This document shows, one piece after another, positions 59,019-61,298 of a stretch of DNA of 64,000 bases (position 1 is its first letter; each line of letters begins with the position of its first letter). The notes under the pieces are model-generated. The model saw only the letters and a program-made list of their open reading frames with translations, had not been told where the DNA came from and ran no database searches. Source of the DNA: Nitrospirota bacterium (GTDB lineage: Bacteria > Nitrospirota > UBA9217). Position numbers and translations under genes: made by a program. The stretch is from the NCBI GenBank assembly GCA_963790205.1, contig CAWBNQ010000002.1, positions 96,001 to 160,000 of the forward strand. The letters are read 5' to 3'.

Positions 59019-59770
59019 CCGGCAAACCGGACGAGCGCGTCCAGGTCTTTCAGGACCTGGAGGCGTTGAGCCATGCGGCCGCCGAATTATTTACTACCCG
59101 TGCAAAGCGACGTGTTGCCGCACAGGGCAGATTTACCGTCGCTCTCTCAGGCGGCGCCACGCCCCGCCGTCTGTACACGCTCCTCGGTTCAACTCCCTAT
59201 CGTGAAAACGTTGAATGGAAACAAGCGCATGTTTTCTGGGCCGATGAACGATGCGTACCCGGAGACCATCCCGAGAGCAACTTCAAGCTTGCCGTTGATG
59301 CGTTCCTTTCCAGCGTCGCCATGCCGAAAGAGAACATTCACCGGATCAAGGGAGAAGAGGGTCCCGGGCGCGCTGCCCAGGACTATGAACAGGATATCCG
59401 CTCGTTTTTCGGGCCGGCCTTGTTTCCGCTTTTCGACCTCATTATTCTCGGCGCAGGCGAGGACGGTCATACGGCGTCGCTCTTCCCGGATTCAGCCTCC
59501 CTGCGCGAAAGGACGCGGCTTGCCCTGCCTGTGTATCTTGAACCCCCGAAGCTCAACCGGGTGACGCTCACGCTCCCAGTGCTGAATCATGCTGCTGAGG
59601 TACTCTTTCTTGCTTCGGGACGCGCCAAGGCCGGGGTCGTGCAGGCGATCGTAGAAAAGGGGAACCCGATGCGCTACCCGGCCGGACTGGTTCAGCCGGT
59701 GCAAGGCAGTATTACCTGGTTCATTGACAGGCAGGCCGCAGACTTATTGGCGGATCATGGCCATACGTAA
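59015..59770 (+). CDS. pgl: 6-phosphogluconolactonase
   Basis: [18 protein letters not shown] and [11 protein letters not shown] motifs. Confidence 0.94.
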
Positions 59771-59867
59771 GTATTCCATTGGCTGTAACCGGTTGGTCGA
59801 GGGACCGCAAGCCTTGTTTTTGTGGTATGATTACACTTATCCTGATCAGAGAGGAGGTGAAAACAGG

Positions 59868-59990
59868 ATGAAGAAGTCAGTGAGCAGGGACGCTCTCGTC
59901 AAAGAGGCTGCCTACTGGATGGCCATGAAGCAATCGGCGAAGCAGAATCCTGGTACGGTATGCCGCAAATGAAAGGGTTGAAAGAGCTAA
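59868..59990 (+). CDS. Putative selenocysteine-containing RiPP precursor, 40 aa, ending CRK-U-KG-U-KS
   Basis: Strong GAGGAGGTG RBS; in-frame TGA at 59970 and 59979 in register with a Cys codon; TAA at 59988; SECIS-like hairpin follows; radical SAM/SPASM gene downstream. Confidence 0.7.
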
Positions 59991-60006
59991 GTTGCTGGTC
60001 AGCAAC
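59991..60006 (+). promoter_or_regulatory. Bacterial SECIS-like hairpin
   Basis: GTTGCT-GGTC-AGCAAC perfect 6-bp stem with a GGUC loop, like the E. coli fdhF SelB-binding minihelix. Confidence 0.6.
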
Positions 60007-60248
60007 GAAAACCGAAGCCGGCAGGTATGGCGCTCAGGGGTTGCCGTCAGGAAACGGCGCTGTTCGCCATATCTTCCGGCCTTCCTTGTACGTCATGAGG
60101 CCGGAAAGTTAAGAAATTGTGAAGTTGGAAGAAATTTTTACCTGTGCCATCTTCCATCTTTTTGCCTTCCCATAATTCTAAGCGCCTTCCCGCGGCCGGC
60201 GGGAGCGAAGAAGACCTGTTATCACGGCAGCATTCATGCGGCACGCTT

Positions 60249-61298
60249 ATGGCGACCAACAAGCCTTTTGAATTTTTTATCCAGTGGCATCTTACCGAAC
60301 GCTGCAACCTCCGGTGCAGACATTGCTACCAGGGCGAACGGAGCGCGGACGAGATGCCGCTCCCGGCAATACGAAACGTCATCATCGAAGTGTCGGATAT
60401 GGTCAAAGACTGGTCGGAATCCTACGGCGTCTCTTTTTCTCCAAGCATGAACGTTACCGGAGGAGAACCGTTCCTGAGAAACGACCTTCTCGAAATCCTC
60501 GGCGAAATCAAAAAGCAGGGATTTAAAATTTACCTTCTCACGAACGGCACTCTCGTGGACAAAAAGAGGGCCCGCATGCTCGCGGACCTCGGCGTGGACG
60601 GGGTCCAGGTGAGCATGGAAGGACCGGAGGATGTGCATGATGCCATCCGCGGCGCCGGCAGTTATTCCGCGTCCGCAGCCGGCGTTGAGCAGCTGGTAGA
60701 TGCCGGGATCGCGGTGACCCTGAATGTCACCGTCTCGAATATCAATGCGGGACAGGTGAACAGGATCATCACCTTCGCTTCCCATGCCGGAGTGAAGCGG
60801 GTGGGTTTTTCGCGACTGGTGCCTGCCGGCAGAGGGCGGGCGCTGCTGTCGCACATGCTCACCCGGGCGCAGGTCAAAGAACTCTACGAGGAGCTTCTTT
60901 CTCTGGAGCTCAAAGGCCTCGATGTTGTCACGGGCGATCCCGTGGCTGCGCAAATGAAAATGAAGGCCAAGAGGGATGCGGGAAGTACGGCAATCAGCGG
61001 CTGTGCCGCGGGTGTTTCGGGGTTGACGATACAGCCGAACGGCAACGTCACCCCCTGCAGGCGGTTGCCCCTTTCTCTCGGCAATGTACGGAGGGATTCT
61101 CTGCGTGAGATATGGGCCGCATCGCCCGTGCTTGAAGCGCTTCGGGACAGGAACAAATACAAGGGAAAATGCGGCGCCTGCACCCGGTGGGCGCGGTGCA
61201 GAGGCTGCAGGGCCATTGCCTACGCCTGGTCCCGTTCAAAGGGAGCTGACGATTTCCTTGCCGACGATCCGCAGTGTTTTATTGAGACAACAGCCTGA
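60249..61298 (+). CDS. Radical SAM/SPASM domain protein (candidate peptide maturase)
   Basis: CNLRCRHC and TGGEP; SPASM motif CAAG...PC...CGAC....CRGCRA...DPQC. Confidence 0.92.
   Translation: MATNKPFEFFIQWHLTERCNLRCRHCYQGERSADEMPLPAIRNVIIEVSDMVKDWSESYGVSFSPSMNVTGGEPFLRNDLLEILGEIKKQGFKIYLLTNGTLVDKKRARMLADLGVDGVQVSMEGPEDVHDAIRGAGSYSASAAGVEQLVDAGIAVTLNVTVSNINAGQVNRIITFASHAGVKRVGFSRLVPAGRGRALLSHMLTRAQVKELYEELLSLELKGLDVVTGDPVAAQMKMKAKRDAGSTAISGCAAGVSGLTIQPNGNVTPCRRLPLSLGNVRRDSLREIWAASPVLEALRDRNKYKGKCGACTRWARCRGCRAIAYAWSRSKGADDFLADDPQCFIETTA

Follow-up and report, generated by a model that had tools for sequence, protein, structure and literature searches.

One SECIS-type hairpin behind the stop codon is predicted to recode two UGA codons of a conserved peptide gene adjoining a radical SAM/SPASM enzyme in Nitrospirota

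A short gene of a Nitrospirota bacterium contains two in-frame UGA codons close to its end and, directly behind its UAA stop codon, a hairpin of the SECIS type; judged from sequence comparison, it is quite probable that this hairpin recodes both UGA codons and that the product is a 40-residue peptide with a Cys-x-x-Sec-x-x-Sec motif, which would be the probable substrate of the radical SAM/SPASM enzyme encoded next to it. The locus lies in a stretch of 64,000 nt (positions 96,001–160,000 of contig CAWBNQ010000002.1, assembly GCA_963790205.1), here called the window, to which coordinates refer unless another locus is named; all features of the locus are on its forward strand.

The peptide gene (59868–59990) comprises 40 codons if TGA is read as Sec (U35, U38), and the predicted product ends in C-R-K-U-K-G-U-K-S; gene callers cut it to 34 residues. 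A Shine-Dalgarno-like AGGAGGTG (59852–59859) is seen 8 nt upstream of the ATG, and a GGAGG(TG) element also stands ahead of the start codon in the related loci that were printed. An extended −10-like element, TG-G-TATGAT (59823–59831), 36 nt 5′ of the start codon, was not called by a two-hexamer scan. Towards the end of the gene the codon for Cys32 (59961–59963) is followed by the first UGA (59970–59972, predicted Sec35), the second UGA (59979–59981, predicted Sec38), the true stop codon TAA (59988–59990) and the hairpin GTTGCT-GGTC-AGCAAC (59991–60006), which has a 6-bp stem, a GGUC loop at 59997–60000, and begins 18 nt past the first TGA and 9 nt past the second; this layout, gaps included, had been given in a preliminary description of the locus and is confirmed in the sequence. 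Further downstream lie a second hairpin, long and GC-rich (60014–60084; −40.6 kcal/mol, with 0 of 200 shuffles folding as well), for which we infer a terminator- or stabiliser-like function, and the gene of the radical SAM/SPASM enzyme (60249–61298; 349 aa), a probable maturase that scores above the cut-offs of Pfam Radical_SAM and SPASM. By inspection, long hairpins are present at the equivalent position in many related loci; the base of the second hairpin carries a semi-conserved G-G/C-C-R-G-R-Y in 68 of 117 loci, with a freely variable apex, a conservation that exceeds the needs of a plain terminator. A promoter and terminator scan called nothing here, the second hairpin included, and Rfam gave no match at E up to 5 for the region 59700–60300.

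The peptide belongs to a family in which both UGA codons are fixed. With a profile built from 25 members, which did not demand TGA, 78 matches were obtained from 401 genomes of the same phylum, 74 of which (about 18%) had at least one, and 73 of the matches have two TGA codons; among the other five, one match ended before the second UGA (both are present in the DNA), one was truncated where its contig ends, and three were weak and do not belong to the family. The same search of 401 genomes of a second phylum found two TGA codons in 27 of 31 matches, the remaining four having E ≥ 0.0049. The matches were pooled, and removal of identical 70-mers and of non-members left 117 distinct loci, six of which stem from a metagenome pattern scan that demanded TGA and was too loose (6 of 120 loci were family members). 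Named relatives belong to Nitrospirota, Syntrophorhabdaceae and other deltaproteobacteria; one genome (G343) has three copies of the peptide (L154, L184 and L185), of which one is beside the enzyme, one solitary and one degenerate next to a remnant of the enzyme gene. A combined pattern of UGA, UGA and hairpin was present in 68 of the 401 genomes of the phylum and in none of the reversed controls, two of the 68 matches looking like chance.

Both UGA positions are TGA in 117 of 117 loci, while the third position, the stop, is TAA in 58, TGA in 42 and TAG in 17 of them and lies two codons past the second UGA in 106; the Cys32 codon is TGC in 96, TGT in 21 and TGA in none. The alignment has invariant E13, W17, C32, U35, U38 and K39, with the core C-x-K-U-K-x-U-K-x. 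Past the second UGA, pairwise comparison gave 4310 synonymous and 2118 non-synonymous differences (about 2:1), which indicates that the coding signal runs on beyond both UGA codons; the family thus displays an invariant in-frame UGA together with coding conservation beyond it, the pair of features that serves as a test for selenoproteins. Annotated proteins end earlier: a protein database holds 363 matches; of the best 120, 119 stop at C-x-x and one is a translation with TGA as tryptophan. Homologs encoding cysteine at either Sec position were found neither in the two samples of 401 genomes nor among the best 120 of the 363 protein matches, so the family lacks the Sec/Cys pair that is the usual criterion, which may also explain its escape from searches for such pairs. 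The pair of peptide and enzyme is absent from NCBIfam 20.0, from Pfam and from a table published in 2026 that lists 119 families of prokaryotic selenoproteins, and no published account of the family was found in a literature search that largely excluded subscription papers and supplements. In one metatranscriptome, in which 0.07 of the words were present, 21 contigs stem from relatives (none ≥95% alike); several span the peptide gene and one links the peptide with the start of the enzyme gene, observations that concern the relatives and say nothing on transcript, strand or level in the present genome.

The fold of the hairpin by itself is modest evidence: the 16-mer (59991–60006; 6 bp and the GGUC loop) has −5.4 kcal/mol, and 3 of 200 shuffles fold as well, or 17 of 200 for its 40-nt context. 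The comparative data lift it well above chance. In 116 of 117 loci the second UGA is followed, at 13–24 nt, by a hairpin whose stem has 5 bp or more and whose loop begins with G, as against 3.05% of 4000 random TGAs of this genome, and the stem covaries, with 65 cells altered on both stem sides among 94 aligned loci; none of 500 shuffles reached this value, in a test that is inflated by the kinship of the loci, and slid controls were all far lower. The hairpin is thus conserved in homologous loci, which belong to many anaerobic species; this was one of the points named for checking in the preliminary description. The loop-closing pair is C-G in 65, U-A in 43 and A-U in 7 of 117 loci, so that the U-A pair of this locus, put forward earlier as a special feature, is ordinary covariation; the missing bulged U is no more special, as the FdhA hairpins of the same genome also lack a bulge. 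The first two loop positions contain G here (GGUC), and the loop starts with G(G/U) in 116 of 117 loci, the last one having been mis-picked by the script. According to the accessible part of PMC13188914, the bacterial SECIS (bSECIS) model asks for a loop of 3–9 nt, an upper stem of 4–16 bp, a distance of 16–37 nt from UGA to loop and a minimum free energy of −7.5 kcal/mol or lower; loop size (4 nt) and stem length (6 bp) lie within these ranges, whereas the energies are −5.4 (16-mer) and −6.8 kcal/mol (59979–60012), values computed on windows other than that of the model. Taken together, the comparative data make it likely that the hairpin is a SECIS element, for which binding by SelB and a need for it in read-through are predicted.

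Other candidate elements fared less well. A second SECIS serving the first UGA was rejected, a separate hairpin for that codon being found in only one of 117 loci. A 4-bp mini-hairpin over the second UGA, proposed by RNAalifold, was likewise rejected as a SECIS: it starts 3 nt past the first UGA, is disrupted where Ser is encoded by TCN, and its covariation is not above that of shuffles (196 of 500 as high). The earlier proposal that one element serves two UGA codons is thereby supported, as the hairpin behind the stop is the only one placed to serve either of them. Its characterization as entirely noncoding holds for this genome but not for the family, for in about 12 of 108 loci the radical SAM gene begins over the hairpin (starts extrapolated from the alignment; L018 by eye), and there the SECIS is coding in another frame. 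In these loci (L018–L022, L250, L251, L253, L254, L162, L163 and L190) the SECIS lies within the first codons of the enzyme gene and, in those printed, the long second hairpin is missing; in L018 the ATG of the enzyme gene overlaps the UGA stop of the peptide gene.

The distances between the codons and the loop are narrowly constrained. Among 116 scored loci, the first UGA is 24–27 nt from the loop G in 112 (full range 24–32 nt), and the second is 15–18 nt away in 112, the other four having longer spacers. In this locus the first distance, 24 nt, lies inside the 16–37 nt range of the bSECIS model, and the second, 15 nt, as in 7 of the 116 loci (16–23 nt in the other 109), is 1 nt under that range and 2 nt under the other Sec sites of the genome. 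It exceeds the minimum of about 13 nt derived from a structural model in which a link of at least that length is needed, about 20 nt is typical and the WHD2-3 hinge is flexible, as far as the account in PMC4605307 is accessible. Where a UGA is used as the stop codon, 5–9 nt separate it from the loop in 41 of 42 loci. The exception (L188, genome G099) has a spacer 6 nt longer, which sets the stop UGA 13 nt from the loop, and is the sole locus where a third Sec might be read. In E. coli, according to what Chen and co-workers are said to have found in 1993, a UGA moved three codons ahead of its usual place in fdhF is not decoded as Sec, a result that speaks against recoding of the more distant codon. 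Read-through of the first UGA is a precondition for reaching the second, and a single hairpin lies within range, which makes the sharing of one SECIS the most economical interpretation; it is likely that a single element recodes both UGA codons at about 25 and 16 nt from the loop and that a UGA at 5–9 nt remains a stop.

The machinery for selenocysteine is present. Genes selA, selB and selD score above cut-off, selD with one TGA of its own, and a tRNA-Sec is one of two UCA tRNAs in all, which completes the selA/selB/selC/selD set used as a criterion for a bacterial selenoprotein gene. Across genomes, selB was found in 64 of 71 carriers of the peptide (53 of 54 of good quality) and in 71 of 74 noncarriers of the same families; being equally common there, its co-occurrence is necessary and not diagnostic, and it was rejected as a discriminator, as both groups are near-universal for it within the families that contain carriers. 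A heuristic scan of the genome gave 70 candidate Sec sites, of which 17 were fetched; four without a family match (L264, L268, L273, L274) were dropped and 13 genes kept, among them one without a match at 1e-12 (L262) that was retained on what we take to be a HesB-like motif. The 14 UGA sites in these genes have loop-G distances of 17–23 nt, with one at 26, where for the first site of the UXX-star gene a hairpin at 19 nt was chosen although another, at 30 nt, is slightly more stable; the comparison with the other SECIS elements of the genome, suggested earlier as a check, thus places the two distances of the peptide family, 25 and 16 nt, astride that range. The UXX-star family-1 gene itself (L271:366–632, minus strand, G000 C1; above cut-off) has two Sec codons at a distance of 57 codons, and one hairpin for each. 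Behind the second UGA come two further codons, the stop TAG and the hairpin at 17 nt, so a SECIS behind the stop codon is already in use elsewhere in the genome. The site at 26 nt belongs to a flavoprotein resembling dihydrolipoyl dehydrogenase and mercuric reductase (L258, G000 C3, TGA at 812189, minus strand) with the redox motif C-L-N-V-G-U; a flavoprotein of this kind has no entry in the accessible 2026 review table of selenoprotein families (PMC13188914).

The second UCA tRNA bears on what is inserted. It has U73, ends in U-CCA, and is encoded at L291:1402–1494 (minus strand, G000 C1), roughly 1 kb away on the upstream side of an fdhA gene with a Sec codon; the genes that flank it are presumably of the LysR type. 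With these features it fits the selC* (tRNA-ReC) definition in the accessible part of PMC5389517 and could place Cys at the UGA codons in this genome, in which a single cysS and a single selB were found. Read-through might then be aided by the hairpin while one or both UGA codons are mainly translated as Cys, through tRNA-ReC or some other non-Sec route, a reading that we regard as improbable. It would suit the large distance between the first UGA and the loop, which is near the upper limit of the spacings, and tRNA-ReC is enriched in UXXU genomes and named there as a caveat, in the text available of PMC13582414. But selC*-like tRNAs are not enriched with the peptide: counted as lower bounds from 60 second-rank matches, they occur in at least 17 of 59 carriers and at least 23 of 59 noncarriers (the UCA type in at least 5 of 59 of each), none was seen in most carriers, and tRNA-ReC was rejected as a family-wide decoder. 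Moreover, insertion of Cys would lead one to expect TGC or TGT at the Sec positions as at C32, and there is none in 117 loci. As a separate observation, four genomes (G285, G291, G305, G391) have two selB matches each, one of which is directly adjoined by a long selC*-like tRNA with GCA anticodon, a layout that resembles selC*-selB* as described in the accessible part of PMC5389517, but within Nitrospirota, the phylum of the window.

The predicted double-Sec peptide is tied to the radical SAM/SPASM enzyme by gene association. The enzyme gene adjoins the peptide gene in 108 of 117 loci; among the nine without an adjacent copy, eight genomes hold an orthologue of 54–60% identity elsewhere (one with an internal TAA), and the ninth locus abuts the end of its contig, in a genome of 88% completeness in which the enzyme was not found. 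Conversely, a search with the enzyme gave 26 loci, 23 of them true relatives, with peptide and hairpin upstream in 21; in the two genomes of the other relatives the peptide was not found. In 96 homologs, three cysteines of the N-terminal part and seven of the SPASM part are invariant. In SPASM maturases, seven ligands shared between two clusters would leave one site open. A CxxxCxxC motif and SPASM cysteines beside a conserved short ORF, the combination by which RiPP maturase systems are recognized, are both found here. None of the best 25 NCBIfam families listed for the enzyme reached its cut-off, and a sequence search of the PDB returned distant radical SAM enzymes only (SkfB, PqqE, MoaA, anSME). 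The neighboring genes, pgl and a nitroreductase gene, were not accepted as members of the system, as they are matched in 21 and 6 of 116 loci, many of which have short flanks; the next downstream gene varies among 22 loci with enough DNA. From this association of genes, the peptide is probably the substrate of the adjacent enzyme.

One could imagine instead that the peptide is mainly a selenium-sensing leader, in which two inefficient Sec insertions set the position of the ribosome and so act on the downstream hairpin and on expression of the radical SAM gene; the long terminator-like hairpin between SECIS and enzyme gene would fit, as would the overlap of enzyme start and peptide end in about 12 loci, which would couple translation. 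We think this distinctly improbable, as the peptide also occurs apart from the enzyme gene, whose orthologue is then kept elsewhere in eight of nine cases, and as the invariance of E13, W17 and C32 over two phylum samples suggests a binding surface, not a pure attenuator. Most improbable is the view that translation really ends at the first UGA, to give a 34-residue peptide, and that the hairpin stabilizes the RNA or has a regulatory role without any part in recoding. In its favor, databases hold the 34-residue form, Cys homologs were not found and the hairpin is weak; against it, a genuine stop codon would be expected to vary between TAA, TAG and TGA, as happens at the third position, but the first UGA is invariant in 117 loci, synonymous variation continues beyond it, and the G-led loop keeps a fixed distance, in frame with two UGA codons.

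If the hairpin is a shared SECIS, SelB with GTP and Sec-tRNA would bind its G-led loop and, across a distance of about 25 nt, supply Sec to the first UGA; three codons on, the loop would be about 16 nt away and the stem still outside the ribosome, so that Sec would be delivered once more by another ternary complex; after two further codons the stem would be reached and melted by the ribosome, so that the next codon would terminate, UGA included. The hairpin would then be near the lower limit of the range as seen from the second UGA and near the upper limit as seen from the first, and the midpoint, about 20 nt and equal to the usual spacing for a single Sec, would read as a compromise. Insertion of Sec is about 40% efficient in E. 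coli in the work reported, as far as accessible, in PMC7026636; at about this efficiency per step, roughly one ribosome in six would finish the peptide, and the selC*-like tRNA of this genome may supply Cys when selenium is short. The enzyme would most likely bind the N-terminal half of the peptide, which is conserved and would serve as leader, and act on the C-terminal nine residues. What it would do there is less certain: the likeliest single outcome, though less probable than not, would be formation of C-Se or C-S cross-links in these nine residues, ahead of selenooxazole chemistry like that of SbtM, which is unlikely, and other outcomes share the remaining probability. Somewhat more broadly, we tentatively suggest, allowing that it may well prove wrong, that the system is a second, unrelated class of selenium RiPPs, with an obligate C-x-x-U-x-x-U core that never reverts to Cys, a SECIS used as a ruler (about 25 and 16 nt for Sec, about 7 nt for stop) and an enzyme forming C-Se cross-links unseen in natural products.

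A shared SECIS for two successive UGA codons has been proposed in print, and a test in a native gene was not found in the accessible literature. The locus makes an unusually clean one: the SECIS is out of frame, so that loop, stem and spacer can be altered without touching the protein, the peptide gene has only 123 bases, and nature offers spacer variants of 15–23 nt as well as 42 loci with a third UGA as the stop. It could also guide the design of recombinant proteins with two C-terminal Sec residues.

Among known elements, the SECIS of E. coli fdhF is close: it shares the GGUC loop and a near-identical upper stem with this hairpin, and the details of it given in the preliminary description (11 nt after UGA, GGUC loop, bulged U, A-U closing pair) agree with the E. 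coli K-12 record. Common to both the present hairpin and the bacterial consensus are G in the first two loop positions, a 4-nt loop and a 6-bp stem, and two relatives (L009, L012) even have the A-U closing pair of fdhF. Unlike fdhF, however, the hairpin has neither the bulged U nor a lower stem, stands past the stop, and faces two UGA codons (24 and 15 nt) instead of one at 18 nt. To call a noncoding, shared element unusual for bacteria, as had been done, is too strong on both counts. A SECIS behind the stop is found in SaoC, DUF466, the UXX-star gene of this genome and 12 of 15 TIGR04081 loci. For DUF466/KCU-star a terminal Sec is described, from which the position of the SECIS past the stop follows (PMC4607533, in part), and the accessible account of SaoC gives a hairpin after UGA-UAG (bioRxiv 10.1101/2022.07.06.499078); SECIS elements have also been engineered into 3′ untranslated regions in E. 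coli (PMC10778597, as far as available). These two families and NF041114 resemble the present case in having Sec at most two residues from the stop and the SECIS in the 3′ untranslated region, but theirs serves one UGA, and the peptide, although it ends in U-x-x-stop (a motif taken from the UXX-star family name) in 106 of 117 loci, matched neither NF041114 nor NF041212.

Shared use has precedents as well. Shchedrina and co-workers reportedly described one SECIS for two UGA codons in bacterial SelL in 2007. Three bacterial UxxU families are catalogued, namely a Prx-like one, the metal-binding protein NF041115 and the FmdB family (accessible part of PMC13188914), and a single downstream SECIS for both UGA codons was proposed in 2026 for UXXU Group 4 hydrogenases (PMC13582414, in the text available). 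Like the peptide, the UxxU selenoproteins have two UGA codons three codons apart; they are folded enzymes with Cys homologs, and the hydrogenase SECIS lies within the coding region. In the present family, by contrast, the motif forms the C-terminal end of a peptide of 40 residues, the SECIS follows the stop codon, and forms with Cys were not found. What looks uncatalogued is neither the post-stop position nor the sharing of the SECIS but the pairing of a double-Sec peptide with a radical SAM/SPASM enzyme.

For that pairing the nearest relative in plan is SbtA/SbtM (TIGR04081/TIGR04082), where a short multi-Sec peptide accompanies a radical SAM/SPASM enzyme (PMC9204691, as accessible). TIGR04081 gave 36 matches in 29 of 401 genomes, and in the 15 loci that were read most Sec codons have their own hairpin and the loop of the terminal-Sec hairpin is past the stop in 12. 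In three of the TIGR04081 loci (L280, L284, L289) a 6-bp hairpin seen by eye, 15 nt past the first UGA, holds the second UGA and the stop in its loop; it may be the SECIS of the first UGA alone, with a second SECIS behind. The present family differs in that none of 25 peptide members matches TIGR04081 or has the GGUG/SGUG motif, and in that the enzyme scores 136.4 bits against the SbtM cut-off of 350 and has 349 aa against a model of 516 positions. By analogy, then, the pair would work like SbtA/SbtM but falls outside TIGR04081/TIGR04082, and on the present sequence comparisons peptide and enzyme are probably a second selenocysteine RiPP system after it; one TIGR04081 locus (L288), with S-S-U-S-S-U and one hairpin at 26 and 17 nt, even has the same geometry as the peptide family described here.
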